Source of the DNA: Sedimentisphaerales bacterium
GTDB lineage: Bacteria > Planctomycetota > Phycisphaerae > Sedimentisphaerales > Anaerobacaceae
NCBI GenBank assembly: GCA_963708075.1
Contig: OY970194.1
Span: forward strand, 3,360,001-3,424,000
Direction of reading: 5' to 3'
Length of the DNA: 64,000 nt
Shown: piece after piece, positions 14,601 to 32,320 of the stretch
How positions within the stretch are numbered: the stretch's first letter is position 1
Layout of the letters: each line of letters begins with the position of its first letter
Notes under the pieces: model-generated
Told to the model about the DNA's origin: nothing
Databases searched by the model: none
Seen by the model: only the letters and a program-made list of their open reading frames with translations
Program-made: the position numbers and the translations under genes

Positions 14601-15786
14601 CACGACCATGGACCACATGGAGCAGAACCACTGCATGTGCTGGAAATTCGACGGGCTGCGTGAGCTGGTGGATTACGCCGACGTCTATTCGCTGACCGCA
14701 CCCCGGCCCCTGCAATGCCAAAACGGCCTGAAGGAGCCTGTCAGCCAGTTCTACGTCCCGCTGGCCCGCGAGGCGATGGAGGAGGTCGGAATGATCTACA
14801 AGGACATGGGAAAGCCCGAGAACGTCGTTCTCGATGTGCACGAGGAGGGGCACGTGATCAACCTGCCGGCACTAACGTCCTTCTTCTCGCAACACCTTGA
14901 GGCCGCGAAGAAGAAGATCGTCTTCCTGCCCGGGCGGCAAAGCCACGGCTGGAGCGGCCACGCCTACACCGCCGACTGCAAACTGCTCGCTCAGATCCTC
15001 AACGAGAATGTGCCGGCCGTCGAAGCTGTGGTGCTCGAGGGCGGCTGGCCCAGGGATCTCATAGGGGCGGGTTTCAAACCCGCCCGTACAGACGGTGTCG
15101 CTGCCATCGTGATCGCCTGCGACGGCAATGGCCTGCTCGGCCCCGAATCCAACTGGCAGGCCCTTGACGATCTCGCGAAAGAGGGCGTGGGAATCGCCTT
15201 TCTGCATTATGCCCTGGACCCCGGCAAAGAGTACGGCAAGTACCTGCTCGACTGGATCGGCGGTTACTACGAGCAGTTCTGGTCGATCAATCCTTCATGG
15301 CTTGCCGAGTTCGAGTCGCTGCCCCAGCACCCGATCACGCGAGGCGTCCAGCCGTTCAAGGTCGAGGATGAGTGGTACTATCACATGCGTTTCCGGGACA
15401 ACATGAAGGGCGTGACGCCGATCCTGACGGCCGTACCGCCCGACGACACGCGCAAGGGCCCGGACGGTCCCCACAGCGGCAATCCCACGGTCCGCGCCCG
15501 CCTGGGCATGGGCGAGCACGTCGCCTGGGCGTACGAGCGCCCCGACAGCAGCCGGGGCTTCGGCTGCACCGGCGGCCACACCCACTGGGTGTACGCGAAC
15601 AACAATTTCCGCAAGCTGATGCTCAACGCTATGTGCTGGATTGCCAAGGTCGAGGTCCCTTCTGAGGGCGTTCCCACCAGGACGCCCACCGTCGAGCAGA
15701 TGGAGGCCGATCTCGAAGGCGACCGCCCGCAGGACTGGACCCCCGAGCGGACTCGGCAAATCATTGAGGAATTGAATCGGAAATAG
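11610..15786 (+). CDS. Multi-domain secreted enzyme: GH78/alpha-L-rhamnosidase-like, alpha/beta hydrolase and ThuA-like domains; +1 frameshift at 12762-12768
   Basis: 'YRVYLNGRFVGHGPARG', 'VDLGTNLTG', 'MDCPSRERAGW', 'TGTLWE', then 'GLSLGG' nucleophile elbow, then ThuA-like 'HPITRGV...DEWYYH...GGHTHW'. ORFs 11610-12791 and 12757-15786 join on removing one A. Confidence 0.7.
15061..15090 (+). repeat. REP-like palindrome inserted in-frame in a coding sequence
   Basis: ATAGGGGCGGGTTTCAAACCCGCCCGTACA, with a perfect 10-bp inverted repeat at 15065-15074/15076-15085. It encodes IGAGFKPART. Confidence 0.7.
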
Positions 15787-15875: not shown

Positions 15876-17159
15876 ATGTGGAAGGCGCTGCACAACTTCA
15901 TTCGCAACCAGAATGGGCCTGACGACTCGCTGATCGAGTTTGAAGACGGCCTGCTGCTCATCGTGGACGCCGAGCAGCTCACGAACAACCTGCGCAGCAA
16001 GCTGCGGCGGTCCATCGGGGCACAAGACGCTATCGTCTACCTGGCCGATATCGGCGAGACATCCAGGGGATTCATTCCGGTTGATTCTGCAGAGACGCAG
16101 AATCCTGCGTCTCCACAACCATGCACGCCGCTGCCGGATATCCCGGCAAACAGCAAAATGGCGGACTGGTTCCGGGCGAATCGCGAAATCCTGCCGCTCG
16201 ATAACAACAATGCGGTAACGGAGTACCTTCGTGACGAGCTCGACCCGTTCGTCAGTCGCGGCATGGAGCTGGTCCTGCCGTTGATCTCCATGGAGCGGCT
16301 GATCGGCCTGGTCTTTTTGTCCCTCGGACAGGCGGCCCTGAGCAAGACACAACTGATGAACCTGCAGTTGCTGAGCAAGCAGGCGGGCCTGGCGTTCGAG
16401 AACGCCCTGCTCTTCAAGGAGCGGCTGCGGCAGAACGAGCGAATGTATCGTGCGGAGCAACTGGCTACGATGGGCCAATTCGCTGCGGGCATCGCGCACG
16501 AGTTGCGTAACCCATTGACCGCGATCCGCAGCACGATCCAGTTCCTCGCCAGCGAGTTCGCGGATGGGTCCGAGCAGCAGAAGCTCTCCGAGATCACGCT
16601 GGAGGAGGTGGATCGGGTGAACGGCATTGTGGGGAATCTCCTGTCGCTGGCACAGCCGGCGGAGAGCAAACCCGTGCCGCTCGATCCGGCCAGGGAGATC
16701 GAGAAGTGCGTCGCTTTCGTCGAAGCGAGGGCCCGAAGTCAGAACGTCGAGCTTCACGTGGCCTGCGAGGACCCCCTGCCCACAATAGCCATCGATCCGG
16801 TGGAGCTGCGGCAAGTGCTGCTGAACATCCTCGTGAACGGCCTGCAGGCGATGCCCGAGGGAGGAACGCTGCGGATCCGAGTGCATCGTTCCCCCGCCGG
16901 AGTCCGGGGCCCGGAGTCCGGAGGCGTCCACAGGGTCCCGGGTGATGGGATATGGATCGAGATTGCGGACCAGGGGCCGGGGATCCCCCGCGAGCTGCGG
17001 GACAAAGCTTTCGAGCCGTTCTTCACCACCAAGGCCGGAGGTACGGGCCTGGGACTGGCCATCTGCAGGAGCATCGTGCGACGCTACGACGGCGAGATAT
17101 GGATTGAAGAGGCCGACGGGGGCGGAACCTGCGTGAAAGTCGCTCTCAGCGCGGAATGA
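15876..17159 (+). CDS. Sensor histidine kinase (GAF-like + HisKA + HATPase), no evident transmembrane segment
   Basis: H-box 'AAGIAHELRNPL', N-box 'QVLLNILVNG', 'DQGPGI', 'FEPFFTTK', 'GTGLGL'. Confidence 0.9.
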   Translation: MWKALHNFIRNQNGPDDSLIEFEDGLLLIVDAEQLTNNLRSKLRRSIGAQDAIVYLADIGETSRGFIPVDSAETQNPASPQPCTPLPDIPANSKMADWFRANREILPLDNNNAVTEYLRDELDPFVSRGMELVLPLISMERLIGLVFLSLGQAALSKTQLMNLQLLSKQAGLAFENALLFKERLRQNERMYRAEQLATMGQFAAGIAHELRNPLTAIRSTIQFLASEFADGSEQQKLSEITLEEVDRVNGIVGNLLSLAQPAESKPVPLDPAREIEKCVAFVEARARSQNVELHVACEDPLPTIAIDPVELRQVLLNILVNGLQAMPEGGTLRIRVHRSPAGVRGPESGGVHRVPGDGIWIEIADQGPGIPRELRDKAFEPFFTTKAGGTGLGLAICRSIVRRYDGEIWIEEADGGGTCVKVALSAE

Positions 17160-17182
17160 GCTTTTCCCGAGGGACGTGCAGC

Positions 17183-18565
17183 ATGAGAAAATCGAGAGTC
17201 CTCATTGTTGATGACGAAGCCAGCATCCGATCCATTCTCTCAGTACTGCTGACAAAGCACGGCTACGAGATCCAGGTCTGCCCATCGGGAGAATCGTGCC
17301 TGGAAATCTATCCGAGGTTCCTGCCGGAGGCGGTGCTGCTCGATTTGCGGATGCCCGGCATCGACGGGCTGAAGGTCATGGAGGAGCTGGCCGGGCAATT
17401 TGGCGCGGACTGCAAGACCATCATCATGACCGCGCATGGGGAGGTCCGCTCCGCCGTCGAGGCCATGAAACGAGGGGCGTTCGACTACCTGGAAAAGCCG
17501 TTCGACAACGACGAGCTGCTGGCGCTCATCGCACGGGCGGTGGAGATGGTGACCTTGTCGCGACGCGTCAGGCAACTGGAGAACCAGCTCGAGGAAACCT
17601 ACGCATTCGACAACATCATCGGTACCTCGGACCGGATGAAGTCCACGTTCGCGCTGATGCGCCGATTCGCCGCCACGGACGGCACGGTCCTGGTGTGCGG
17701 CGAGAGCGGGACCGGCAAGGAGCTGATCGTGCGAGCCATTCACCAGGCGGGCCGGCGCAAATCCGGGCCGTTCATCGTGGTCAACTGCGGCGCCATCCCC
17801 TCCAGTCTGATCGAGAGTGAGTTCTTCGGCCACGAGGCGGGGTCATTCACAGGCGCCACGAAGCTGCGCAGGGGCAAGTTCGAGGAGGCCGACGGCGGCA
17901 CACTGTTTCTCGATGAGGTCGGCGAGCTGACCCTCGACGCCCAGGTCAAGCTGTTGCGGGTGATCGAGGCAGGGACTTTCTGTCGGATTGGCGGCAACGA
18001 GCCGATCCAGGTGGACGTTCGTGTGATGGCCGCGACGAACCGCGACTTGGCGGCGGCAGTCAAGGAAGGAAGATTCCGGGAGGACCTCTTCTGGCGTCTG
18101 CAGGTCCTCAGTCTCACGGTCTGCCCGCTGCGTGAGCGTCGCGAGGACATTCCACTGCTTGTGGACCACTTCGTAGGCAAGTTCGCCGGCTCGTTCGCCG
18201 TACAGCCGCCCGGGGTCCCGTCACAGACGATGGGTCTGCTGACCCGCTACGAGTGGCCCGGGAATGTTCGCGAGCTTCAGAACTGCATCTACAGCGCAAT
18301 GACGGTATCCGAGGGGTCGAGCATCGAGCCGAACGCTCTGCCGGAGCGGATCCACAAAGGCACGGCAGGAGCCGCCCCTGGGCAAGCCCCATCCGGAGAC
18401 ACCTGCCTGGCGCAAGTCGTCACTCATGCCACCGAGAAGGCGGAGAAAGAAGCCATTCAAGAGGCGATTGCCAAGACGGGCGGCAACCGGGAGAAGGCCG
18501 CCGAGTCTCTCGGCATCGGCCGCACGACCCTGTACCGCAAGCTCAAGCAGTATGGCATCGAGTAG
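17183..18565 (+). CDS. Sigma54-dependent response regulator (NtrC/AtoC family)
   Basis: Receiver 'LIVDDE...LLDLRMPG', Walker A 'GESGTGKE', 'GSFTGA' loop, 'LFLDEV', 'WPGNVREL', Fis-type HTH 'LGIGRTTLYRKL'. Confidence 0.92.
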   Translation: MRKSRVLIVDDEASIRSILSVLLTKHGYEIQVCPSGESCLEIYPRFLPEAVLLDLRMPGIDGLKVMEELAGQFGADCKTIIMTAHGEVRSAVEAMKRGAFDYLEKPFDNDELLALIARAVEMVTLSRRVRQLENQLEETYAFDNIIGTSDRMKSTFALMRRFAATDGTVLVCGESGTGKELIVRAIHQAGRRKSGPFIVVNCGAIPSSLIESEFFGHEAGSFTGATKLRRGKFEEADGGTLFLDEVGELTLDAQVKLLRVIEAGTFCRIGGNEPIQVDVRVMAATNRDLAAAVKEGRFREDLFWRLQVLSLTVCPLRERREDIPLLVDHFVGKFAGSFAVQPPGVPSQTMGLLTRYEWPGNVRELQNCIYSAMTVSEGSSIEPNALPERIHKGTAGAAPGQAPSGDTCLAQVVTHATEKAEKEAIQEAIAKTGGNREKAAESLGIGRTTLYRKLKQYGIE

Positions 18566-18630
18566 TGCCAGGGTACCCGTGGGAGGTTCGCACCATCTAA
18601 CACATGTAGCATCGGCGAGCTTCGCCTTCT

Positions 18631-18650
18631 TCCGCTTGTCGCTGCCACCC
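18631..18650 (-). repeat. Partial copy of the GGGTGGCAGCG palindromic repeat family
   Basis: Reverse complement GGGTGGCAGCGACAAGCGGA matches the heads of copies at 47470, 47560, 53502 and 59503. Confidence 0.55.
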
Positions 18651-18731
18651 CCATCGCTCTTCATCTGGAAAGGCCAAGGCGAGGCTGCCAGAGGGCTGCC
18701 ATTTTATTTGCGCAGAGACATGCGAAACCGC

Positions 18732-18769
18732 CGTTTCATTCGTGGTACATGTGTGCCGGTTGCGGCACA
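18732..18769. promoter_or_regulatory. Putative tandem upstream activator sequences for the enhancer-binding protein
   Basis: Perfect palindrome TGTGCCG-N4-CGGCACA at 18752-18769, with an adjacent degenerate CGTTTCA-N4-TGGTACA at 18732-18749, about 100 bp upstream of a sigma54 promoter. Confidence 0.6.
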
Positions 18770-18864
18770 GAAGAGAACGGCCGGAACAGACACCTGCTTG
18801 ACGGTACGCATCATAACTTCTTTCGAGAGATGGTTTTAGGAGATTTGTGGCACAGAGGTCCAGT

Positions 18865-18881
18865 CTGGCACTCGCTTTGCT
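18865..18881 (+). promoter_or_regulatory. Sigma54 (-24/-12) promoter
   Basis: CTGGCACTCGCTTTGCT, with GG at 18867-68 and GC at 18879-80 in canonical spacing. It lies just upstream of the TolC operon and downstream of a sigma54 activator gene. Confidence 0.85.
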
Positions 18882-18927
18882 CATCAGGGGCAACGAGATA
18901 CAGTGATTCAGTTTTCGAGCGGCCAGT

Positions 18928-20532
18928 ATGCTGACAATCGCAAAGTCGTCTGTTCGGTCTGAGAATGCGGCAAGCCTGGGACGTGGAGCCAGATCGGCGT
19001 TCCTGCATCTTTTGCTTATCTGGATCGTGCCGGCGTGCCAGCCGGCAGCGCTCGCGGCACCGGATAAACTCGGCCCCGCTCTTCGCCAGGTGGAGCGACG
19101 GCTCGACGAGGAAGCCGGGAGGGATGCCTTTGAGCCGAATTCCCTCGCGTTTCAGCGGGCCACGGGAGAAACGCCTGCCAGAGAGGTCGCCTCGAAAAAG
19201 CCCGCCGCCGAGTATGTGCTGACGCTGGACGACTGCCTTCGACTGGCGTTCACTCAGAACAACGAGATCAAGCAGACGCGCGAGCAGATCCTTGGCGTCG
19301 GCGGCAGCAAGATCATCGCCAATTCGCGATTCCTGCCCGCCATCGAGTTGATCAACCAGTACGAGCGTCTCAGCGACTTCGATGCGGACGCAAAGGCGGA
19401 AAGCTACTCGTTCGGCGCCAGGATCACACAGCGAATCCTCGAATACGGCAAGGACAACCCCATCGACGTCACGCTGCGGGCGGAGCAGCGTGACGCCTTA
19501 TTCACCTATGAGACGCAGGTGGCGAGGGTGTTCTCACAGGTCCGCCGGAACTTCCTGCTGATCAAGCTGAAAGAGCAGCAGATCGCCACGCGCCAGGAGT
19601 TGCTGGAGCAGTTTGAGAAACAGTACGAGGTGAAACAACAGCGGTTGGAGGCGGGCAATCTCAGCGTCAAGATCGAGGTCCTGACAGCCCGGCTGAACGT
19701 CCTCAACGAGCGGACCCGCATCAACACGCTGAGCCGGGAGAGGTTCAACCGCATCATGGAATTGTTGCGGCTGGTCGGCCTGCCGGTCAGCGCAGACCGG
19801 ATCGTGCTTATCGGCGAGTTGGATGACTTTGGCCTTGGTCCATTCGATGCGGAGCAGATGGTCCGGCTTGCTCTGGCTCAAAGCAGTGGCGTGGCGCTGG
19901 CCCAGGCGATTGTGGGCGAAGGAGAAAGGTCGCTCGACCAGATTCGCTACGAGTACTGGCCGGACTTGCGATTCACCAGCGGCTACCAGGACCGCAACGG
20001 CAGCGCCGGGGCAACGATCTCCAATCAGAATGATACCTGGGGCCTCGACGTGATCGGCCAGCCGCGACTGCCGAGTTCCAGGGATGAAAGGGGACGAGGC
20101 CTGGGCCTCTTTGGAGATGAGGTGACGCTGGGCAGCCCGGACCCGGGCTGGTTTGCCGGGCTGCAACTGCGAATCCCGCTGGCTGATGGCAACATTCGCA
20201 AGGGCGAGAAGATCGAGGCCAGGGCCTTTCTCAACGCCGTCCGGGCGGCTCTTGCCGACCAGAAAGACCTCGTCGAGCTAGGGGTCCGTCAAAGCTACAA
20301 ATTCCTGGCCGAGCAGAATTTTCAGGTCGAAGTGGAACAGGAGAACGTCAAGATCGAGCGGGAGAGATTCCAGATCCAGGAGGAATTGAGGAACGCCGGC
20401 AAGATCACCGACGATCAGTTGGAGACGTTCCGCCGAACATTCTTCGCGGCTCAGGACGACCTGTTTCTCGCCCAGGAGGACCTGATCCAGCGACAGGAAG
20501 ATCTGCGTCTGACGATACGCTATTTCAAGTGA
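18928..20532 (+). CDS. TolC-family outer membrane efflux protein
   Basis: 'LTLDDCLRLAFTQN', two helical repeats with 'RFLPAI' and 'EYWPDL' strands, 'LQLRIPL', 'AGNLS'/'AGKIT' turns. Confidence 0.8.
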   Translation: MLTIAKSSVRSENAASLGRGARSAFLHLLLIWIVPACQPAALAAPDKLGPALRQVERRLDEEAGRDAFEPNSLAFQRATGETPAREVASKKPAAEYVLTLDDCLRLAFTQNNEIKQTREQILGVGGSKIIANSRFLPAIELINQYERLSDFDADAKAESYSFGARITQRILEYGKDNPIDVTLRAEQRDALFTYETQVARVFSQVRRNFLLIKLKEQQIATRQELLEQFEKQYEVKQQRLEAGNLSVKIEVLTARLNVLNERTRINTLSRERFNRIMELLRLVGLPVSADRIVLIGELDDFGLGPFDAEQMVRLALAQSSGVALAQAIVGEGERSLDQIRYEYWPDLRFTSGYQDRNGSAGATISNQNDTWGLDVIGQPRLPSSRDERGRGLGLFGDEVTLGSPDPGWFAGLQLRIPLADGNIRKGEKIEARAFLNAVRAALADQKDLVELGVRQSYKFLAEQNFQVEVEQENVKIERERFQIQEELRNAGKITDDQLETFRRTFFAAQDDLFLAQEDLIQRQEDLRLTIRYFK

Positions 20533-20545
20533 GGTGTGAAGGGAC

Positions 20546-22153
20546 ATGAGCGAGCGCAGCAAAATGGGATCGGCCGCACTGGCCGTACTCGTGCAGATGT
20601 CACTGGCACTGGCGGCCGGCATACAGGGCAATGAACCCAACAATCCACCCTCGGCGGAGGAGGCGACAAAGACCCGTACACAATTGCTCAACGAGCTGAA
20701 CCTCCGCACGGCGCAGGTCGATCTGGAGCACGCCAGGGAGGCCTACGAGCGCTATGAGGCCGAGCACAAGGAGGCGCAGGTCCTGTTCCAGAAAGGGATC
20801 ATGTCCCGCAAGGAGTTGGACGAGGCCGTGTCCGCCTACGCGCGGGCGGCACAGCAACTGAAGCAGGCGGAGATTCTATTGGAGAAGACCCGGCTGAGCT
20901 TCCTGGCCAATGCCACGCACATCACGATCGTGGAAGCCAAGAAGTACTACGACAACGAGGGCAGGCGCAAGCTTGACCTGGTCCTGAAGAACACCTCCAA
21001 TCTGCCCCAGGCCGAGTCAGCCCTCAGCCATCACGACCCCAACCTGCCGTCGCAGCCGACCTGGCAGAATCCCGAGCAGATCCGGGCCCTGCTCAACGTG
21101 GAGAACATCATCGTCTCGGTGGTCAAGGACACCGCCAGCATCAGCAAGCCGTATGAGGAAATCATCCCCGTCCTACCCTACGGCCAGCAGAAGAAGGTTG
21201 TTTTCGAGTTGCTCACCGACGTCGAGCAGGCGGGCGTCAAGCTCCAGTACCTGGACCAGACCGTCACGAACAGCATCTACCTGGAGAAGGAATCCCTGCA
21301 GGAGACTCCCACAGTCGTGGCCTCGCAGTTCTCGCTGGAGGGGGAGCTTGGCCAGGACGTACGTTATGACCTGGGACTGGAGATGCTGGTGACCTCGGAC
21401 CGCAACTTTTCGCTGGCCGTGACGAACATGCCCCCGCAGATCAATTGCTATTTTGTGGATTCAAGCAGCGGGTCGCGCGTCACGAGCGTGCGATTCACGC
21501 AGGAGGTCAGCAAGCACAACCTGAGCCTGCGCGCCTCGATTCCTCGCAAGCTTGACGTCGCCATGATTGATAAGCGGGTCGATTTCCAGGTCTGGGTCAC
21601 GACACCTGCTCAGATCGACCTGATCAATAAGCAGAAACGTCAGCACCCGGATACCGACTTGAGCAGCGAGGAGCTCGACCAGGTCGGCGCCGGCCGGATG
21701 GACCTGTCGCTCATTCCCAGGGGCGCCGGCCGACTCGAGATCCTCATCAACAACCTGTATTCTGAGATCAAGCCGCAGGAGCCCGTGATCATCCAGGCCG
21801 ACCTGCACAACGACGGAACGTTGACCCTGTTCAACATCGTCCCCGAGATCTCGCCGCCCCTGCGATGGGAGGCCGAGGTCGAGCCCAAGATCATCGAGCG
21901 GATGCAGCCGAACGAGCGGCAGAGTCTTCGCATCCGCCTGCAGCCGGGGGCCGATGTCGGCGTGGGCGAGTATGAGGCCCAGATCGAGGCCCGCGGCCAG
22001 TCCGGCAGCGAGACCATCGAAGCTCTCGAAAAGCGAGTGAAAGTCCGGATTAACGCGGAAACGAATATCAAGGCCAACCTGCTGCTGGTGGGTGGCCTGG
22101 TGTCCCTGATCGTCGTTATCATGGTCTTCGGCGTGAAACTCAGTCGCCGATGA
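20546..22153 (+). CDS. Exported, C-terminally membrane-anchored protein with N-terminal adaptor-like coiled-coil hairpin and Ig-like (NEW3-like) domains
   Basis: Signal peptide, hairpin 'AQVLFQKGIMSRKELDEA', beta-rich middle, 'LHNDGTLTLFNI...PPLRWEAEVEP...PGADVGVGEYEAQIEA', final TM helix plus 'KLSRR'. Confidence 0.65.
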   Translation: MSERSKMGSAALAVLVQMSLALAAGIQGNEPNNPPSAEEATKTRTQLLNELNLRTAQVDLEHAREAYERYEAEHKEAQVLFQKGIMSRKELDEAVSAYARAAQQLKQAEILLEKTRLSFLANATHITIVEAKKYYDNEGRRKLDLVLKNTSNLPQAESALSHHDPNLPSQPTWQNPEQIRALLNVENIIVSVVKDTASISKPYEEIIPVLPYGQQKKVVFELLTDVEQAGVKLQYLDQTVTNSIYLEKESLQETPTVVASQFSLEGELGQDVRYDLGLEMLVTSDRNFSLAVTNMPPQINCYFVDSSSGSRVTSVRFTQEVSKHNLSLRASIPRKLDVAMIDKRVDFQVWVTTPAQIDLINKQKRQHPDTDLSSEELDQVGAGRMDLSLIPRGAGRLEILINNLYSEIKPQEPVIIQADLHNDGTLTLFNIVPEISPPLRWEAEVEPKIIERMQPNERQSLRIRLQPGADVGVGEYEAQIEARGQSGSETIEALEKRVKVRINAETNIKANLLLVGGLVSLIVVIMVFGVKLSRR

Positions 22154-22169
22154 AAGCCGGAGAAGTGCG

Positions 22170-22268
22170 GTGTTTCGTACATTGGTTGCCAAGGAAATTC
22201 TTGAGACGGTGCTCGATCTTCGCTTAGCCGTCGCGTCTGTGCAATTCAGCAAATACGACGTTCGGTAA
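22170..22268 (+). pseudogene. 32-codon internally deleted ABC permease remnant
   Basis: GTG-started 'MFRTLVAKEILETVLDLRLAVASVQFSKYDVR*' with GGAG RBS. It is the N-terminus and C-terminus of the neighbouring permease family joined in frame. Confidence 0.8.
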
Positions 22269-22310
22269 CTGGGATTAGCGAATAGGCAATGAGAAACGGG
22301 AGAAACAAAG

Positions 22311-23030
22311 ATGATTGAACTAAGGGAACTGACCAAGCGTTACGAGGATGGCATTTTGGCGCTGGACCACGTCAGCTACACGATCCAGCCGGGCGAGATC
22401 TTCTGCCTGCTCGGCGCCAACGGGGCCGGCAAGACCACCACCGTGAACATCCTGCTGGATTTCATCCAGCCCACGAGCGGCTCGGCCTTTCTCAATGGCC
22501 ACGACTGCAACCGCTTCCCACTCGAGGCCAAGAAGTACGTTTCCTATGTTTCGGAGAACGTGCAGCTCTACGGCATGTTCACCGCACGGCAGAACCTGCG
22601 GTTCTTCGCGGAGCTCGGCGGCAAGAAGGGTCTGAAGAACCAGGAGCTGGACAACGTCATGCGCTCCGTGGGCCTGCCCGAGAAGGCGCTGACCATGCGG
22701 CTGAAGAACTACTCCAAGGGCATGCGCCAGAAGCTCGGCATCGCCATCGCCTTGATCAAGGACCCGCCCGCGATCATCATGGACGAGCCCACTAGCGGCC
22801 TCGACCCGAGAAGCGCCAATGAGTTTCTCGACCAGTTGCGAAAGCTCCGCGAGCGGGGCAAGGCTATCCTGATAACTACGCACGACATCTTCCGGGCCAA
22901 GCAGATTGCCGACCGTGTCGGCATCATGAAGCAGGGCCGCCTCGTCGCCGTGCGCAAGCGCGATGAGTTCAAGCACGCCGACCTGGAACAGATTTACCTG
23001 CGCGAGATGGAAGCGGCCGAAGCGGTCTGA
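22311..23030 (+). CDS. ABC transporter ATP-binding protein (ABC-2/drug-exporter type)
   Basis: Walker A 'GANGAGKTT', signature 'YSKGMRQK', Walker B 'IIMDEP', H-switch 'ITTHD'. Confidence 0.95.
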   Translation: MIELRELTKRYEDGILALDHVSYTIQPGEIFCLLGANGAGKTTTVNILLDFIQPTSGSAFLNGHDCNRFPLEAKKYVSYVSENVQLYGMFTARQNLRFFAELGGKKGLKNQELDNVMRSVGLPEKALTMRLKNYSKGMRQKLGIAIALIKDPPAIIMDEPTSGLDPRSANEFLDQLRKLRERGKAILITTHDIFRAKQIADRVGIMKQGRLVAVRKRDEFKHADLEQIYLREMEAAEAV

Positions 23031-23069
23031 TCGCCGCCAATGGCCGGCTGTCAATGGAGGGACCAAATC

Positions 23070-24602
23070 ATGATCTGGAAAATCGCAGCCAAGGAATTCC
23101 TGCTGAACCTGATGACGTTCAAGTTCGTCGTGGGGACGATCCTGTGCATTGTCCTGGTGACAATCTTCGTGCCGGTGCTGGCGGAGGACTACCGGCAGAG
23201 ACTTCAGCAGTACGATCAACGGGTCGCAGACAACGAGGCCAAGTTGCGGGAGGTTAAAGCCTACCGGGTGCTCACGCCGACCGTGTATCGCCGGCCGCAG
23301 GTGCTTTCGGTCTTCAGCCAAGGCATGGAGAAGCGTCTGGGCGATTCGGCGAGGATCGACTTCGGCGTGATCCCCCAGATCGATGCCGGGCCGGCCGAGG
23401 TGAATCCATACCTGTCCATCTTCCCTGCGTTCGATGTCTTGCTGATCTTCAAGATCGTCATGAGCGCCTTGGCCCTGCTCGTGGCCTACGATGTCATTTC
23501 CCGTGAGAAGGAACAGGGCACGCTGAGTCTAATGCTGGCCCATCCTCTGCGCCGGGGACACGTGCTGCTCGGAAAGCTCGCCGCAGGGTCATTGACGTTG
23601 GCGGCTCCCACGACAGTCGCATTCATCGTCGGCCTGCTGTTGCTCTCGACCTCTCACTCGGCCGCGTTGGATGCGTCCGATTGGGTGAGAATCGCCGCGA
23701 TGTACGTTGTCTCCCTGCTATTCGTGTTAAGCATGTACAACATCGGCCTGCTGTTTTCATGTCTGACCCGAAGCTCGGCACTGGCGCTGGTCTTGGGGCT
23801 GTTCTTCTGGGTACTCGCTGTCGCGGTGGTCCCGGATGGCAGCGTCTACCTCGCCCGGCGTCTCCAACCCGTTCAAGCCGTGGAGACAAGAGATGAGCAG
23901 GTTGCTGCGCTCACAAAACAGTTCAGCGAGGACTTGTACGCAAGACTGGATGGCCTGCCCGACGGTGGGATAGAGCACGATGCGGGGGGCCCATTTGAAC
24001 CCTATGGGCCGCTGGGAGGCACGTTCGCTTACTATGCCACGATATGCACACCTGCAGGGTTAGACGCTTGGACGCGACGCGTTCAGGTCGAGGCGGCCGT
24101 GAAGATGGAGTATGCCGACAAGCTGCAAGACGTCGGCCGGCAATACGCCGACAGCCAACTCAGGCAGGCGGGTCTGGCCAAGTGCATCGGCATGATCTCG
24201 CCGACTTGCCTCTACGACAGTACTATGAGCGCGCTGGCGGGAACAGACGTGACGGCCTTTCAGTCGTGGGCGCAGACCGCCGGCGCATACCGCGAGGCCC
24301 TGATCACCTACATTCGCAATAAGACCGACAACCTGTGCTCCCCATCATATATCACTCAGTCCACTGAGGCGGAACGCATCGCATGGGAGAAAGCTCCCGA
24401 TCCTGAGCGCGACACGTTGAGAGAAGCGGCTGATCGACACACCGTTCCCCTGAACCTCCAAGACCTCCCGGCGTTCAGATACTCTGCCGATGTCATCCAG
24501 AGCCTTCGCGGGGCCGGGATCGATCTGATTCTATTGATAGCTTTCAACGTGCTGTTCTTTGCGTTGTCCTTCGCGGCGTTCCAGAAGTATGACGTGAGAT
24601 GA
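23070..24602 (+). CDS. ABC-2-type permease, paralogue A1
   Basis: 'MIWKIAAKEFLLNL', 'ISREKEQGTLSLML...VLLGK', multiple TM helices, large extracytoplasmic loops, ends 'KYDVR'. GGAGG RBS. Confidence 0.85.
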   Translation: MIWKIAAKEFLLNLMTFKFVVGTILCIVLVTIFVPVLAEDYRQRLQQYDQRVADNEAKLREVKAYRVLTPTVYRRPQVLSVFSQGMEKRLGDSARIDFGVIPQIDAGPAEVNPYLSIFPAFDVLLIFKIVMSALALLVAYDVISREKEQGTLSLMLAHPLRRGHVLLGKLAAGSLTLAAPTTVAFIVGLLLLSTSHSAALDASDWVRIAAMYVVSLLFVLSMYNIGLLFSCLTRSSALALVLGLFFWVLAVAVVPDGSVYLARRLQPVQAVETRDEQVAALTKQFSEDLYARLDGLPDGGIEHDAGGPFEPYGPLGGTFAYYATICTPAGLDAWTRRVQVEAAVKMEYADKLQDVGRQYADSQLRQAGLAKCIGMISPTCLYDSTMSALAGTDVTAFQSWAQTAGAYREALITYIRNKTDNLCSPSYITQSTEAERIAWEKAPDPERDTLREAADRHTVPLNLQDLPAFRYSADVIQSLRGAGIDLILLIAFNVLFFALSFAAFQKYDVR

Positions 24603-24641
24603 ACCGAATGGCGACTTGATCGCTTCGGCGGAGAAACCATC

Positions 24642-26060
24642 ATGTTCTACCGGATTGTACGGAAAGAAATCCTTGAGAACTTGCTGAGCCTGCGATTCAC
24701 GCTTTCGCTGCTGCTGACGGTATCACTCTTCGCGGCCGCCGCCTTCGTGTTTGTCGATGACCACCGGGAGCAACTGGATAACTACTGGCGCAGAACGAAT
24801 GCGAACGTCGCTGGCTTCCGGGAGCAGGCGGATCAACTGAACAAGGTCGCCTTCTATGAGCAGCACGTGTACAGCCGGCCGAAGCTGCTGGCGCTATGCG
24901 ACGGAGGATTCGAGCAGTCGCTTCCCCGACACGTCAGCTTCACCGGGTTCCGCATCGACCTGCCCCGACTCGCGGGCCAGAGCAATTTCGCCCTGCCGCG
25001 CTTCGCCTGCCTGGACTGGTCCTTCATCATCTCGCTGATTTTCAGCTTCATCGCATTTGTCTTCACATACGATTCCGTCTGTGGCGAGCGGGAACGGGGC
25101 ACGCTGCGTCTCATGCTGGCCGGGGCGGTGCCGAGGACCACGGTTCTTCTGGGCAAGTATGCCGGCCTGATGCTTACCCTGGGCATCCCCCTGCTGCTGG
25201 GGCTGCTGGTAAGTCTGATCATCGTGAGCGTATCGCAGATCGATGCATTTCACACCGGCACGTGGGCGAAAGTGCTGAGCATCGTCGCACTCTCTTTCAT
25301 CTACCTGTCTATTTTCGTGTTCATAGGCCTGTTCATATCCGCCCGGGCGTCGCGGCCGGCGAATTGCATGGCCACTCTGTTGTTTCTGTGGGTGACTCTG
25401 GTGATCCTCGTTCCGAGCCTGGGGAGGATCGCTGCGGACAAGCTTGGCCGTGGTTCACCACCCGTGGATCTGTACAAGGCCAAGGCCGAGGCCGTGCGCC
25501 GGGTGGAGGATGACGTTGGGGCCGGCAAATTTGGCGAACGTGCCGGCGCACGCACCCCCAATCCCAAGGAATGCAACCCGTCGGCGAGGGCACGGTACTG
25601 CAACGCCGAGGCGGAAGCGGTCAACCAGGTCATCGAAAGCTACCACAATCAGATGCTGGCCCAGGCCTTCGCCGGCCGCAGGCTCACGCGAATCTCCCCG
25701 GCCGTGGTGTATCGCACCGCCTCGGAGGCCTTTGCCGGCACTGGAATGCGTCGCTGCATCAATCTGTTTCGTCAAGTCCGGCAATACCAGGTGCAGCTTC
25801 GCGAATACGTGATCGGCGAGGACCGGGGTGATCCAGACAGTCTTCACCTGCTCTTCGACGAGGCGCATTCCGTCGCGGAGTGGAATGCGATCTCCAAGAA
25901 GCCTGTGAGTTTCGAAGGCGTGCCAACGTTCCAGGAGCGGGACTTCACGCTGGGTGAATCCCTGAGACTGGCCGTGTGGGACCTCGGCGCGCTGGCCCTG
26001 TTCAATCTGGTCTTCTTTGCGGCCGCTTTTGCTTCTTTTCTCAGGTATGACGTTCGGTGA
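24642..26060 (+). CDS. ABC-2-type permease, paralogue B1
   Basis: 'IVRKEILENLLSLRF', 'CGERERGTLRLML...VLLGKY', ends 'RYDVR'. Confidence 0.85.
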   Translation: MFYRIVRKEILENLLSLRFTLSLLLTVSLFAAAAFVFVDDHREQLDNYWRRTNANVAGFREQADQLNKVAFYEQHVYSRPKLLALCDGGFEQSLPRHVSFTGFRIDLPRLAGQSNFALPRFACLDWSFIISLIFSFIAFVFTYDSVCGERERGTLRLMLAGAVPRTTVLLGKYAGLMLTLGIPLLLGLLVSLIIVSVSQIDAFHTGTWAKVLSIVALSFIYLSIFVFIGLFISARASRPANCMATLLFLWVTLVILVPSLGRIAADKLGRGSPPVDLYKAKAEAVRRVEDDVGAGKFGERAGARTPNPKECNPSARARYCNAEAEAVNQVIESYHNQMLAQAFAGRRLTRISPAVVYRTASEAFAGTGMRRCINLFRQVRQYQVQLREYVIGEDRGDPDSLHLLFDEAHSVAEWNAISKKPVSFEGVPTFQERDFTLGESLRLAVWDLGALALFNLVFFAAAFASFLRYDVR

Positions 26061-26084
26061 CTCAAGGAATGAAGGGAGATACTG

Positions 26085-27144
26085 ATGGCACGAGATGCTG
26101 CTAGATTGATTGCGGTCTCGGTTTTTTCCCTTGGCGTGCTCTTGTCCACGTGCGTCAGTGCGACATCAGCGGGAAACGATTCAAACCAAGCCGTGAGTCG
26201 GACGGCGTCCGCCGACAGCAACCGCCCCGCGGACGTGAACGAGGCTGTGCGTCCGGAGCAGAGAACCGAACAAGCTCGTCGCTTGGTGGAAGCTCGACGA
26301 CAACACCAGCGACAGCGTCGGCGCCATCGCTGGGACCGCAATTGGGAATCTGACCTATGCCTCCGGTAAGTCCGGGCAGGCACTCAGTCTCGACGGCGCC
26401 GGTTGCGTGGACTGCGGGAAACAGGACTCGCTGGATTTCGGCGCGGGCGACTGGGCCATATCCGCCTGGATAAAGACGACGCAGGCGGGCATAGAAAGCA
26501 CCAGCAAAGGAACCATCTTCGCCAATGGGGCGGACGAAGTCGGCGGGATACGGTACGCGCTGACTGTAAACGAAGTGGATTCGGGCAGGATTGCCCTGAC
26601 CACGGATGATGACCGGATGAAGGTACAGGCAACCGGCCGAACCGCCGTGAATGATGGAGCCTGGCACCATATCGTCGGGACAAGAGAAGGCGGGACGTTG
26701 CGCATCTATGTGGATGGCACGTTGGATGGAACGAGCGACCTTCCCGGCAAGCACGATCTCGCCGGCGCCTCCGGGCAAAACGCATATATCGGGGCCATCA
26801 GGGACAACAGGGACGGAAGCCTGTACAAGTACTTCGTCGGCCAGATCGATGAGGTTTGCGTCTTTGCGTGTGCGTTGGGCGACAGCCAAGCCAAGGCTTT
26901 GTACTCGGGCGCAGATCCGATGACGATTGCCGGCAGCGTGGATGACCAGCCAGCCACAACTGTCGATGCCATTGCGGTGGCCCCGGCGCCTGCGAAGAAG
27001 ACAGGCGGTAAGTGGTTTGGCCTGGCCGGGATCCTCGTGGCGGCCGGCCTGATTGCGTGGGCGTTTCGGTCCGTGATGAGACTGCCGATGAGTCGCAGGG
27101 ACATCAGCGGACCGCTGCGGCACCTGGCCCGCGGAGTGCCGGGT
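26085..27144 (+). CDS. Exported LamG/concanavalin-like domain with C-terminal TM helix; +1 frameshift at 26261-26267; reads in frame into the next permease
   Basis: Signal peptide in ORF 26085, then after the shift 'PNKLVAWWKLDDN...GKSGQALSLDG...ISAWIKT...DGAWHHIVG...IYVDG...GQIDEV'. No stop before ATG 27145. Confidence 0.7.
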
Positions 27145-28708
27145 ATGACCTGGAAGATCGCCAGGAAGGAATTCTTGCTGAACCTGATGACATTCAAGTT
27201 CACGGTGGGGACTGTGGTCTGCATCGTTCTGATGGCCGTGTTCATGCCCGGACTCGTGAGCGACTACGAGGAACGGCTGCAAAACTACAATGGGAATGTC
27301 GCCGGCAACGAGGCGGAGTTCCAGAAGGTCAAGGTCTATAACAATCTCACGCCCACCGTATACCGGGCGCCCACTGTCCTCTCGGTGTTCAGCAAAGGAA
27401 TCGTCGACCGTTTGGAGGCTTCGGAGCGGATCGACCTGGACGAGGTGTCTGGAACCGAGAACCGGTGTCGGGGAGGCGAACACGCTGCTCTCTGTCTTTC
27501 CGGCGATGGACGTGACGCTGATTCTCAAAATCGTCATCAGTGTCCTGGCCCTGCTCATGGCGTACGATGTCGTCTCCGGCGAGAGGGAGCAAGGAACGCT
27601 CCGGCTGATCCTGTCCAACACGACGCCCCGGCACCAGGTCCTGCTCGGCAAGCTCGTCGCGGGGTGGATGACCCTGGCGGTGCCGGTGACGGCGGCATTC
27701 ATCGTGGGCCTGTTGATCCTGCTGATGTCGAACGCCGTCAGCCTCGGCGGGGCAGACTGGCTTCGCATCGCGCTGATGTATCTCATCTCCCTGATCTTTG
27801 TCGGATCGATGTTCAACCTCGGACTCCTGCTGTCCTCCGTCAGCAGAAACTCCGCCATTTCCCTGGTTTTTGTGCTTTTTCTCTGGCTGGTCTTCGCGGC
27901 AATCCTTCCAAACGCCAGCGCCAACCTCGCCGCCCAGATCAGGCCGATCGAGTCTCCCGAGCAGTTCGCGGCCAAGCTCAAGGCGATCACGGACCAGCGC
28001 GACCAGGAAATCCGGGAGCTGGCCAGAGATGTCGATAGCAGCGGGGATCAATCGGAGTCCGACGCGGTGGGCGCCTTCGGCAATGGTCTCGTCCTGCTCT
28101 GCAACAAGGGCTACATGGACTACCACAGGCAGATGTATCCAATCACAGAGCCCTGCAAGATCCAGTGCATCGACAAGCTGTTGGACGTGAAGGCACAGTA
28201 CCTGAGCAGCCTGATGCGGCAGAAGCAGCTCGCGGACACCCTTTCCGGCATCACACCCATCCTCCTTTGCGAGCGCCTGATGTCGATGCTGGCGGGGACC
28301 GACTTCGGCAACTTCGGATCGTTTAAGAGTCGCGTGAGGGCGTACCGGCACGAAGTGGCGGACTACGTCCGCGACAAGACCGGGAATTTCTCCTCGGCGT
28401 GCTATTTCACACCCTACCCGGAAGGAGAGCACGAGAGATTGATGGAAGCGTACTTCAAGCCATATGAGGAGGCTCAGGACGAGAAGGCGAAAGCGAAGCT
28501 CTACGAAACCGCCAGGCAGAAGTACGAGCAGTTGGGGAAAGACGCGCCCACGCTTGCCCTGGAGGATTTTCCGAAGTTCACGTATCGGACCCAGCCCATC
28601 GCGGCGACACTGCAACAGGCGATTCCGGCCGCGGGGCTGTTGATCTTCGAAGGCGTCCTCTTCTTCGCATTGTCCTTTGTGGCGTTTCTCAGATATGACG
28701 TCAGATAA
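27145..28708 (+). CDS. ABC-2-type permease, paralogue A2; +1 frameshift at 27457-27463
   Basis: 'MTWKIARKEFLLNLMTFKF' is nearly identical to A1. It continues 'ETGVGEANTLLSVFPAMDV...SGEREQGTLRL' after removing one A, and ends 'RYDVR'. Confidence 0.8.
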
Positions 28709-28755
28709 CCTGCGGCCGTACCGGACAGAGTACTAAGCCTTTGGGAGAAAAACAC

Positions 28756-30174
28756 ATGATCGGCTTGATCGTACGCAAGGAAGTCATGGAGAACCTGCTC
28801 AGTCTGCGTTTTGCACTGTCACTGCTGCTCGTTGTCGCCACCTTTGCCGTCGGTGGATTTGCATTCGTCAGCAAGTACGAGCAGCAGGTGCAGGATTACT
28901 CGGTGGATAGTAACCGGAGCCTGACGAACCTGCGAGACCGAACGACCAGACTTTATCGAGTGGCGTTCCATCAGCAGGAGATCTACCGGGCGCCGAAGCC
29001 TCTGACGCTCTGCGTCGAAGGGTTTGAGAAATCGATCCCGAACTACTATCGGCTCAATGCATTCTCCAGAGACTGCCCCGAGATCAAGGGACGCACCAAC
29101 GCATTGTTGTTCGGGTTCTGCGACGTGGACTGGGTGTTCATCGTTTCGCTATTCCTAAGCTTCGGCGCGCTGGTCTTCTCGCACGACAGTCTCTGCGGGG
29201 AGAAGGAGAAGGGGACTCTGGCCCTGCTGCTGGCGGGCTCTGTGTCTCGCTACAAAATCCTTCTCGGCAAGTACATTGCGGCCATGCTGACCCTCGGCAT
29301 CCCCCTGCTCCTGGGCGTCCTGATGAGTCTGCTCATTGTGACTCATTCCAAAGCCGTGGCGATCCACGCGGGTGAATGGCTGAAGATCCTGACCATCATG
29401 CTCATGTCCTTTCTGTACCTTTCCGTCTTCGTGTTGCTGGGCATGTTTGTCTCGAGCCGGGCAAAACGCTCCGTGATCAGCATGGTGATCCTGCTGTTTG
29501 TCTGGGTTGGCCTGGTTATGGTCGTTCCGAGTTCCGGCCGGACGATTGCCCAGGCATTCCGCACCGTGCCGACCCAGGCGGAGCTACAGAAGGAGATCAA
29601 CGATGCCATGGGTCGATTGTGGAACGATTGCGTGGCGGGCAAGTACGGGGAGAAAGCCGGCACGGCTACGCCCAATGTGAACGAGTGCGATCCCCCGGCG
29701 CGGGCACAGTGGAGAAACGACGCATCGGAGCAGAGGAACCGGATGATCGACGAGCACGTCAATCGGATGATCGCCCAGGTGACCATCGGCCGCCAGTTCA
29801 CACGCGTCTCACCCGCGGAGATATACAGGCAGGCGTGCGAAATCATCGCCGGGACCGGCGTCCAACGCTTCTCGCAATTGTGCCGGCAGAGGGCCCGGTA
29901 CCAGGACGAGCTTAGAGAGTACATTTGCAGCCGGGACAGTGAGGACCCTGCCAGTCTTCACCTGCCGTCCGACGACAACTACGCAGCCGGCGCATGGAAA
30001 ACGATCTCTCATGCGAGGGTCGATTTTGACACGGTGCCGAAATTCCACGAGCGTGACCTGGCGCTGGGCGAATCGCTGAAACTGGCCGTCTGGGACATCG
30101 GACTGCTAGTCCTGTTCAATCTCGCCTTTTTCGCCGCGGCTTTCGTATCGTTCTCACACTACGATGTGCGGTGA
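28756..30174 (+). CDS. ABC-2-type permease, paralogue B2
   Basis: 'IVRKEVMENLLSLRF', 'CGEKEKGTL', shares 'GKYGEKAG..TPN..EC.P.ARA' and 'LGESLKLAVWD' with B1, ends 'HYDVR'. Confidence 0.85.
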   Translation: MIGLIVRKEVMENLLSLRFALSLLLVVATFAVGGFAFVSKYEQQVQDYSVDSNRSLTNLRDRTTRLYRVAFHQQEIYRAPKPLTLCVEGFEKSIPNYYRLNAFSRDCPEIKGRTNALLFGFCDVDWVFIVSLFLSFGALVFSHDSLCGEKEKGTLALLLAGSVSRYKILLGKYIAAMLTLGIPLLLGVLMSLLIVTHSKAVAIHAGEWLKILTIMLMSFLYLSVFVLLGMFVSSRAKRSVISMVILLFVWVGLVMVVPSSGRTIAQAFRTVPTQAELQKEINDAMGRLWNDCVAGKYGEKAGTATPNVNECDPPARAQWRNDASEQRNRMIDEHVNRMIAQVTIGRQFTRVSPAEIYRQACEIIAGTGVQRFSQLCRQRARYQDELREYICSRDSEDPASLHLPSDDNYAAGAWKTISHARVDFDTVPKFHERDLALGESLKLAVWDIGLLVLFNLAFFAAAFVSFSHYDVR

Positions 30175-30196: not shown

Positions 30197-32174
<1,978 letters not shown>

Positions 32175-32320
32175 CCTGGTCCCATCCACGAACGCCTGTC
32201 AACCATTCCCCACGCCTGCCCACACCAGATGGCGATCCTATCGCGCCGACCCGCGAGGATCAAGATGAATCGATGTGGGGAGCCCATCTACGGCTGGCAC
32301 CCGGCCAATGACTCTATCGA

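Follow-up and report, generated by a model that had tools for sequence, protein, structure and literature searches.

A predicted TolC-linked export system with a tail-anchored hairpin adaptor and exchangeable ABC-2 permease pairs in a Sedimentisphaerales bacterium

The window analyzed here, a stretch of 64,000 nucleotides (nt) from the single-contig 7.5-Mb genome of a Sedimentisphaerales bacterium (G000:C1:3360001-3424000), carries a plus-strand locus that encodes a TolC-family outer-membrane factor (OMF), an immunoglobulin (Ig)-like adaptor, a single ABC ATPase and four ABC-2 permeases behind a predicted sigma54 promoter. The channel, the adaptor, the ATPase and a permease pair very probably constitute one machine. 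We also lean toward a fuller mechanism, in which this machine would act as a tripartite exporter, accept exchangeable permease cassettes and pick up bulky cargo on the periplasmic side. A preliminary description of the locus had named a sensor kinase, an enhancer-binding regulator, a palindrome, a promoter, TolC, an Ig-like protein, an ATPase, four permeases and a LamG domain, and an open reading frame (ORF) list combined with a Pfam scan recovered every one of them, in place and on the plus strand (Table 1).

Results

Linkage of the channel and the adaptor

We gathered 33 loci from species genomes and 44 from metagenomes, and examined 79 Phycisphaerae-like loci, some of which are redundant and which, as kin, are not independent. 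A neighborhood comparison of the kind that the preliminary description had proposed bore out conserved synteny: the TolC gene lies less than 400 nt from the adaptor gene in all 64 Phycisphaerae-like loci whose sequence extends far enough to show it, and in 16 of 23 Latescibacterota-group loci. Within a sample of 151 genomes from the phylum of G041 (Latescibacteria), 67 encode the adaptor and 55 the cognate TolC subfamily; all 55 carry the adaptor as well (55 of the 67 adaptor genomes, a partly circular co-occurrence that is weighed below), and coordinates read by eye place the two genes side by side in 54 of these 55. The adaptor occurs in four of 301 genomes of a class sample, the same four possessing the TolC subfamily. 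Distribution is patchy, the system being present in five of 41 relatives, and the window's genome has a single copy of the adaptor gene. The order of genes flanking the TolC-adaptor pair varies freely, yet all the parts stay together across two phyla. Most of the many bacteria that carry the cluster are uncultured.

The adaptor family comprises 708 clusters at E values up to 0.001 and 188 clusters (50% identity) at E values up to 1e-30. Close homologs carry the names Sedimentisphaerales, Phycisphaerae or Planctomycetota, and distant adaptors come, by source name, from Bacteroidota, KSB1, Acidobacteriota, Glassbacteria and Gemmatimonadota. Neither a distant adaptor nor permease B1 found a match when queried against plasmids.

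An efflux-type hairpin on a tail-anchored scaffold

An AlphaFold model of the adaptor built from 95 sequences (pLDDT 91.7) comprises an N-terminal signal-like helix, the cleavage of which was judged by eye only, an alpha-hairpin (residues 44-123), three Ig-like beta-sandwich domains (126-245, 256-392 and 397-502) and a C-terminal transmembrane (TM) helix (508-534) that is conserved together with a basic tail; the model has no beta-strand before the hairpin. The best PDB matches of the adaptor profile are hairpins of membrane fusion proteins (MFPs) only, namely TriA/B (7.9e-7) and a MacA-MexA chimera (5e-6), with further matches to MexJ, MexA and MacA and the tip in register, and the MFP chains align to the adaptor over the hairpin alone. 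In structural searches the hairpin matched AcrA (Z 10.9, root-mean-square deviation (rmsd) 1.8, 80 residues) as well as EmrA, HlyD, MexA and MacA; with long helices, such Z values do not settle the matter by themselves, and the sequence match is the stronger evidence for the hairpin. The last domain is Ig/PapD-like (best Z 12.1, rmsd 2.0, 108 residues).

At the hairpin tip, in what we take to be the motif named R-L-S in MFPs, Leu is kept in 87 and Ser/Thr in 81 of the 95 members. About 41 of the 95 lack exactly 7 residues in each hairpin arm, both arms shortening together. Three Pfam families that are presumably MFP hairpin families (PF25893, PF25876 and PF25881) match many adaptor homologs. 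No lipoyl or HlyD Pfam domain was found in the 95 members, a lipobox-like motif occurs in two of them, and the Pfam scan revealed no HlyD-family protein among all long plus-strand ORFs of the window's locus. On the model, the adaptor is an efflux-type hairpin mounted on an unrelated, tail-anchored Ig scaffold that replaces the lipoyl and beta-barrel domains. It is MFP-like by its hairpin and stands outside the MFPs by its lipoyl domain, beta-barrel and anchor position. The preliminary statement that the system has no standard MFP is therefore correct as to the missing HlyD-family gene and needs amending as to the adaptor, which still carries an MFP-type hairpin.

Two sequences, P0269 and P0405 (90% identical to each other), fuse a permease to the adaptor. 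A complex prediction for two TolC subunits and the adaptor hairpin, run without controls, scored 0.00 and is evidence in neither direction. Tandem pairs of divergent adaptor genes occur in L048, L062, L063, L065, L068 and L076, which suggests hetero-oligomeric adaptor rings like those of TriAB. Longer adaptors of 579-797 aa (P0127, P0128, P0129, P0154 and P0167) contain extra copies of the first Ig-like domain and could span a wider periplasm.

A TolC channel with two additional predicted strands

The window's TolC matches PF02321 with 95 bits (cut-off 22), and a Foldseek search with its model (61 sequences, pLDDT 82.2) returned SilC, TolC, CmeC and OprM at E 1e-14, so that family (OEP) and fold are those of TolC, OprM and CmeC. 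Known OMFs possess four strands per subunit and 12 per trimer according to the available text of two sources (PMC8277102, PMC13438883). Unlike these, the monomer model has six long strands (138-148, 157-174, 346-355, 358-367, 370-380 and 407-415), two more than in TolC, OprM and CmeC. Hydrophobic and polar residues alternate along the extra strands, which follow a two-residue turn, open on a conserved aromatic and occur in 60 of 61 aligned members; the segment between two conserved prolines spans 72 residues here versus about 35 in CmeC. If all strands insert, the trimer would possibly be an 18-strand, wider barrel in place of one with 12. Among the literature matches listed, as far as their available text goes, none describes an 18-stranded TolC or OMF.

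One ATPase, paired permeases and accessory genes

Walker A, signature, Walker B and H-loop motifs are all intact in the ATPase, and median identity to the window's protein is 83% among 30 orthologs; the corresponding median for permeases is 30%. One ATPase was found in 32 of the 79 Phycisphaerae-like loci, none was in view in 47 and no locus had two, while permeases reach nine per locus, cassettes having been both gained and lost among relatives. All four window permeases match ABC2_membrane_2 and DUF3526 above the Pfam cut-off, and none matches PF12704 (MacB periplasmic core) or PF02687 (FtsX); in the locus, a match to TIGR03740 (lantibiotic-protection transporter) falls below cut-off. The permeases are of the NosY/ABC-2 type, not the protein-threading HlyB type, and the best solved relative of the permease B1 TM region is NosY, at a weak similarity (E 1.3e-4). 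Identities of 41-63% between P1 and P3, 50% between P2 and P4 and 24-32% across types divide the permeases, at the level of sequence, into type A (P1, P3) and type B (P2, P4).

Pairing was analyzed in a tree of 155 permease sequences, from which 27 adjacent A/B pairs of the window's clades were taken and other clades excluded. A and B distances correlate with a rho of 0.88 over the 27 pairs, partners have the same nearest neighbor in 19 of 27, and among 384 within-locus swaps the pairing actually observed ranks first (swap median 0.55). Because of these results, we regard the A and B permeases as co-diverging partners whose pairs appear to travel as units, not merely with the host. Coupled with the 32 one-ATPase loci, this supports the earlier proposal that one ATPase serves alternative A1/B1 and A2/B2 pairs. 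The large divergent extracytoplasmic loops noted at the same time are likewise borne out, most divergence residing in the large periplasmic loop: DUF3526 is the least conserved part of the A-type permeases (28% versus 57% in TM2-5).

Accessory genes interspersed with the cassettes encode multi-LamG proteins, small N-anchored proteins, TPR/HEAT proteins and a subtilase, and those in arrays show signal-like or membrane-anchor ends by eye. LamG counts as a subunit-like accessory, which in the window shares one reading frame with permease 3. Twelve accessory proteins, kin to each other, end in an adaptor-like TM tail, with 15.8-32.5 bits to an adaptor-tail profile for which the background is at most 14.9 bits among 16,500 ORF ends of the genome. 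In L050 and L069-L075 (e.g. L069:2703-3527), a multi-copy family of 270-320-aa proteins with signal peptides fills the operon behind the sigma54 site. This family has no Pfam match, its 21 profile matches all lie in those Latescibacterota-group loci, and a sub-threshold Atlas lead (0.81-0.82) points to an NTF2-like or YbjP-like fold; it is the best cargo candidate. Ahead of one clade of short permease pairs stand small N-anchored proteins with a weak DUF4864 match (L018:4787-5356 and related loci). The two small accessory families do not align to each other (hhalign probability 0.7%), and both are absent from the window's genome.

Predicted sigma54 control

No other exact match to the promoter consensus of Table 1 occurs in the window, and the whole 7.5-Mb genome has 16; sites with one mismatch number three in the window for a chance mean of 5.1, which is not above chance. 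The site is considered significant because its position is conserved among relatives. A -24/-12 site directly follows the regulator gene in 12 of 13 Phycisphaerae-like loci and precedes TolC in the 13th, and allowing up to one mismatch it is found in five of six Latescibacterota-group loci. The tandem palindrome lies about -137 and/or -117 from the -24 box in all 12 aligned Phycisphaerae-like promoter regions, and is essentially absent from the five other promoter regions aligned. Conservation of both elements among relatives supports the predicted promoter and the upstream palindrome that the preliminary description had picked out. With consensus, enhancer, activator and rpoN (which the source genome possesses) all in place, the operon is predicted to be sigma54-dependent. 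The window scan gave no sigma70 or terminator signals above chance, and an Rfam search of the locus had no match; no RNA run was listed for the locus.

The sensor kinase is likely cytoplasmic, judging from a TM scan in which predicted TM segments were absent from nearly all close orthologs. In L071, L073 and L075 the sensor has been swapped: the kinase there is a membrane-bound HAMP type (with a Cache domain in two), unlike the GAF kinase found in the window, which is soluble. The promoters of L017-L042 have in common an A/T-rich motif between enhancer and promoter, about 45-60 nt before the -24 box, which presumably resembles a binding site of integration host factor.

Sequence corrections, the LamG-permease fusion and the permease remnant

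In the window sequence, both permease 3 and the LamG gene appear to contain a frameshift. The base at 27460 is missing from short-read contigs of runs X1 and X3; the base at 26264 is missing from X2 (a listed gap) and is skipped by loose letters at two contig ends of X1. As X1 is possibly the source sample, it serves as an assembly check and not as independent support. Runs X4 and X5, with small word shares, underlie no claim here. The two apparent frameshifts (26264, 27460) are assembly errors. Once the two extra bases are removed, 26085-28708 reads as one 873-codon frame with eight hydrophobic segments, in the order signal peptide, LamG, TM and complete permease, a coherent topology. One X1 contig spans the LamG-P3 junction (26940-27174) gap-free with one substitution, and P3 retains its own ATG and a ribosome-site-like motif at 27145. 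The permease remnant and the LamG domain of the preliminary description thus both exist, with the correction that LamG and permease 3 form a single in-frame fusion.

In the remnant, the opening ~20 codons of a permease run directly into its last ~8, and a whole permease of 488-513 aa occupies this site in close relatives; the remnant is a real deletion scar. Permease remnants in other loci were read from hit maps only. One X3 contig jumps from 23038 to 26170, across the A1/B1 cassette, with 58 letters on its short side, a hint that this cassette was lost in a near strain. Two further apparent fusions were discarded, a 1574-aa LamG-permease ORF in L030 being an artefact of an N run and a 1135-aa "TolC-adaptor fusion" in L057 a wrong-frame extension. 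No long fused forms (983-2805 aa) turned up in a search, which is weak evidence.

Features and surroundings of the locus

Table 1. Features of the plus-strand locus, in window coordinates
Feature	Position	Strand	Evidence
Sensor kinase, GAF-HisKA-HATPase	15876..17159	+	Pfam; orthologs 50-94% identical, 18 loci
Sigma54 enhancer-binding response regulator, REC-AAA+-Fis HTH	17156..18565	+	Pfam
Tandem enhancer: perfect palindrome TGTGCCG-N4-CGGCACA (18752-18769) and a weaker copy near 18732	18732..18769	+	Motif in 12/12 aligned Phycisphaerae-like promoter regions
Predicted sigma54 -24/-12 promoter, consensus TGGCAC-N5-TTGC	18866..18880	+	Exact match and positional conservation
TolC-family outer-membrane factor (OEP), predicted extra amphipathic beta-hairpin at residues 358-380	18928..20532	+	Pfam OEP, model, Foldseek
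Adaptor, 535 aa, NPCBM_assoc (NEW3) Ig domain, C-terminal TM	20546..22153	+	Pfam, model, profile matches
Deletion scar of a fifth permease	22170..22268 (about)	+	Start codons joined to C-terminal YDVR end
Single ABC ATPase, 239 aa	22311..23030	+	Pfam; catalytic motifs intact
Permease A1 (P1), ABC-2/NosY type, DUF3526; likely start 23070	23040..24602	+	Pfam, identities, tree
Permease B1 (P2)	24642..26060	+	Pfam, identities, tree; best solved relative NosY
Signal peptide-LamG-TM fused in frame to permease A2 (P3)	26085..28708	+	Two single-base assembly errors inside
Permease B2 (P4); likely start 28756	28741..30174	+	Pfam, identities, tree

Genes resembling a GDP-fucose synthase and a GDP-mannose dehydratase (window 30197-32189, minus strand) converge on the end of the operon. 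Upstream (window 11610-15786), a rhamnosidase-like gene shifts frame near 12760 and continues into abhydrolase and ThuA-like domains (1009 aa), the frame change being possibly another assembly error. The flanking GDP-fucose genes and glycoside hydrolases were considered as parts of the system and rejected, as neighbors vary between loci. Elsewhere in the genome, at 1350988-1352483 (G000:C1, minus strand; L010:7986-9484), lies a second, decayed permease with a type A front and a type B back. This broken chimera near 1.35 Mb adjoins an unrelated ABC ATPase and permease and is likely a recombination scar.

Discussion

In the mechanism that we propose, the channel, adaptor and ATPase would form a fixed core into which interchangeable permease pairs likely plug. 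By analogy to AcrA and MacA, about six adaptors would ring an A/B permease dimer, standing on their C-terminal TM helices, with the Ig domains caging the variable periplasmic loops of the permeases and the hairpin tips meeting the tips of TolC. ATP hydrolysis would move the periplasmic loops by MacB/NosY-like mechanical coupling, with no protein-sized pore in the inner membrane, and each cassette with its accessory periplasmic domain (LamG or others) would set specificity. The most likely cargo would be material that is already beyond the inner membrane (peptides, small folded proteins or glycoconjugates), and this bulky material would be pumped from the periplasmic side of that membrane to the cell exterior. 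We infer the direction of transport and the cargo class, and the preliminary label "secretion machine" is provisional to that extent: periplasmic pick-up and export of bulky cargo are suggested because the permeases are of NosY/ABC-2 type, the specificity parts are periplasmic and the channel is predicted to be wider. A more specific version, which we consider doubtful, envisions a two-step secretion platform present in several uncultured phyla, in which a wide 18-strand TolC and the independently built, tail-anchored adaptor accept permease pairs that cells plug in and discard, each having a periplasmic receptor of its own, and export folded periplasmic proteins such as the multi-copy 270-320-aa family of the Latescibacterota-group loci; if that were true, cassette turnover would reflect an arms race.

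Several observations count against the proposed exporter. Twelve of the 67 adaptor genomes lack the cognate TolC subfamily, and the five of these that were checked have only other OMFs, located elsewhere, and short-hairpin adaptors. In a complete genome, adaptor copies lie beside TolC with no permease next door (L048, L052). Co-occurrence of channel and adaptor is partly circular through a TolC profile built from adaptor-adjacent genes. The tip Arg is kept in only 30 of 95 adaptors and is Glu in the window's own. The 12 accessory tails are not 12 independent cases, and the window's LamG tail has no match to the adaptor-tail profile. The LamG-permease fusion may be a strain accident, because all 11 relatives in which the junction is intact encode LamG separately. 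Across the whole family no cargo gene is conserved, and DUF3526 is also present in Caulobacter, home of the proposed uptake system znuGHI. Apart from these points, the six inspected short-hairpin adaptor loci are those without the cognate TolC, one of them adjoining an ordinary-looking OMF. Two loci without the cognate TolC have a separate exporter with standard HlyD-type adaptors directly downstream (L067:13312-18826 and L077:13815-19597).

Among alternative functions, we weighed a mechanical or assembly device that moves or loads periplasmic partners (LamG, NTF2-like or TPR proteins), with TolC as the anchor or exit of a surface structure. NosDFY uses ATP to move or load periplasmic partner proteins, NosY is the closest solved permease, and the cassettes include accessory periplasmic proteins with an adaptor-like anchor. 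A Helicobacter pylori system of TolC, MFP and two ABC-2 permeases affects flagellum stability, its structural role being left open in the available text (PMC9570263). A dedicated OMF and an MFP-type hairpin that are conserved together, a predicted wider barrel suited to passage of bulky cargo and the lack of nos or conserved surface-structure genes in the loci scanned argue for an exporter instead, and leave the assembly device unlikely. Uptake, in which a widened TolC would admit glycan fragments or a metal complex, LamG and similar parts would capture them and the permease pairs would import them, seems decidedly unlikely. It draws on Caulobacter znuGHI, described in the available text as Zur-repressed beside a TonB receptor (PMC4176598), on DUF3526 being confined to Caulobacter among 14 control genomes (a match not confirmed as znuH/I) and on glycoside hydrolase genes that flank the window's locus. 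However, those flanking genes differ from locus to locus, the Pfam scan found no solute-binding protein or TonB receptor belonging to the window's locus, and every case of an OMF with hairpin adaptors that is reviewed in the available text of PMC8277102 is an export device.

One-step, type I-like secretion, with cytoplasmic proteins threaded straight outside, would also account for a TolC, an adaptor and an ABC ATPase in one locus, and sigma54 two-component control is common at secretion loci. It is nonetheless very unlikely given ABC-2/NosY permeases with a separate ATPase in place of type IV exporters, accessory genes with signal-like N-termini and no RTX-type or signal-less cargo gene seen. 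We consider it highly improbable that the parts are co-regulated but separate, the permeases and ATPase clearing the membrane in a LanFEG-like manner while TolC and the Ig protein act apart. An ATPase with two permeases is indeed the lantibiotic-protection layout (the sub-threshold TIGR03740 match), and some loci are without TolC or without nearby permeases; the permease-adaptor fusion, and the persistence of the parts together over two phyla despite shuffled gene order, speak against such a division.

A TolC-type channel, an adaptor, two different ABC-2 permeases and a separately encoded ATPase are known from Escherichia coli YbhG-YbhFSR(-TolC) and H. pylori HP1486-HP1489, as described in the available text of PMC13585988 and PMC9570263. 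In that text, their adaptor is a standard MFP with lipoyl domain, beta-barrel, hairpin and N-terminal anchor, whereas the adaptor here retains the hairpin only and has a C-terminal anchor; one permease pair and no array is described there, versus up to nine permeases per ATPase here. MacAB-TolC (type VII) and the AcrA/MexA adaptors share hairpin sequence and shape with our system, as well as the periplasmic pick-up and mechanical coupling that we propose, but the present permeases are without the MacB/FtsX domain, and Ig-like domains replace the lipoyl, beta-barrel and membrane-proximal domains of AcrA/MexA. NosDFY is similar in that NosY is the closest solved relative of the permease TM region, and JGI names P0269 after the same COG; in contrast, NosY has 276 aa without DUF3526, and no NosD or nos cluster was found among the locus proteins scanned. 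To our knowledge, NosDFY has no OMF. Caulobacter ZnuGHI resembles the system in combining one ATPase with two ABC-2 permeases, in a species with DUF3526, and is Zur-repressed and proposed for uptake in the available text of PMC4176598. Where ZnuGHI has a TonB-dependent receptor and Zur, the window has TolC, the adaptor and sigma54. Unlike type I secretion, which employs a fused TM and ATPase exporter, the locus encodes a stand-alone 239-aa ATPase and ABC2_membrane_2 permeases.

Literature searches, with most subscription papers outside their reach, returned no description of DUF3526 permeases, of a NEW3-ABC linkage or of an ABC-2/TolC system with a non-canonical adaptor, nor one of this system under the lineages with TolC/MFP or under COG1470/COG1277. 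The preliminary description had not recognized the architecture as a characterized system. This stands insofar as we found no paper that describes it, and is limited by the fact that TolC with two ABC-2 permeases is already known; the adaptor architecture, the channel variant and the cassette array are what we could not find described.

If the proposed mechanism is correct, the docking hairpin would be all that the adaptor keeps, set on an inverted Ig scaffold, which would show the part of an adaptor that is really needed. A TolC with two more strands per subunit would offer a wider channel for export engineering, and one motor serving exchangeable permease pairs would be a modular pump for engineering as well as a natural test of partner specificity in ABC heterodimers. 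The mechanism would also provide a first hypothesis for the uncharacterized DUF3526 permeases and for the large family labeled only "NEW3 domain-containing protein".

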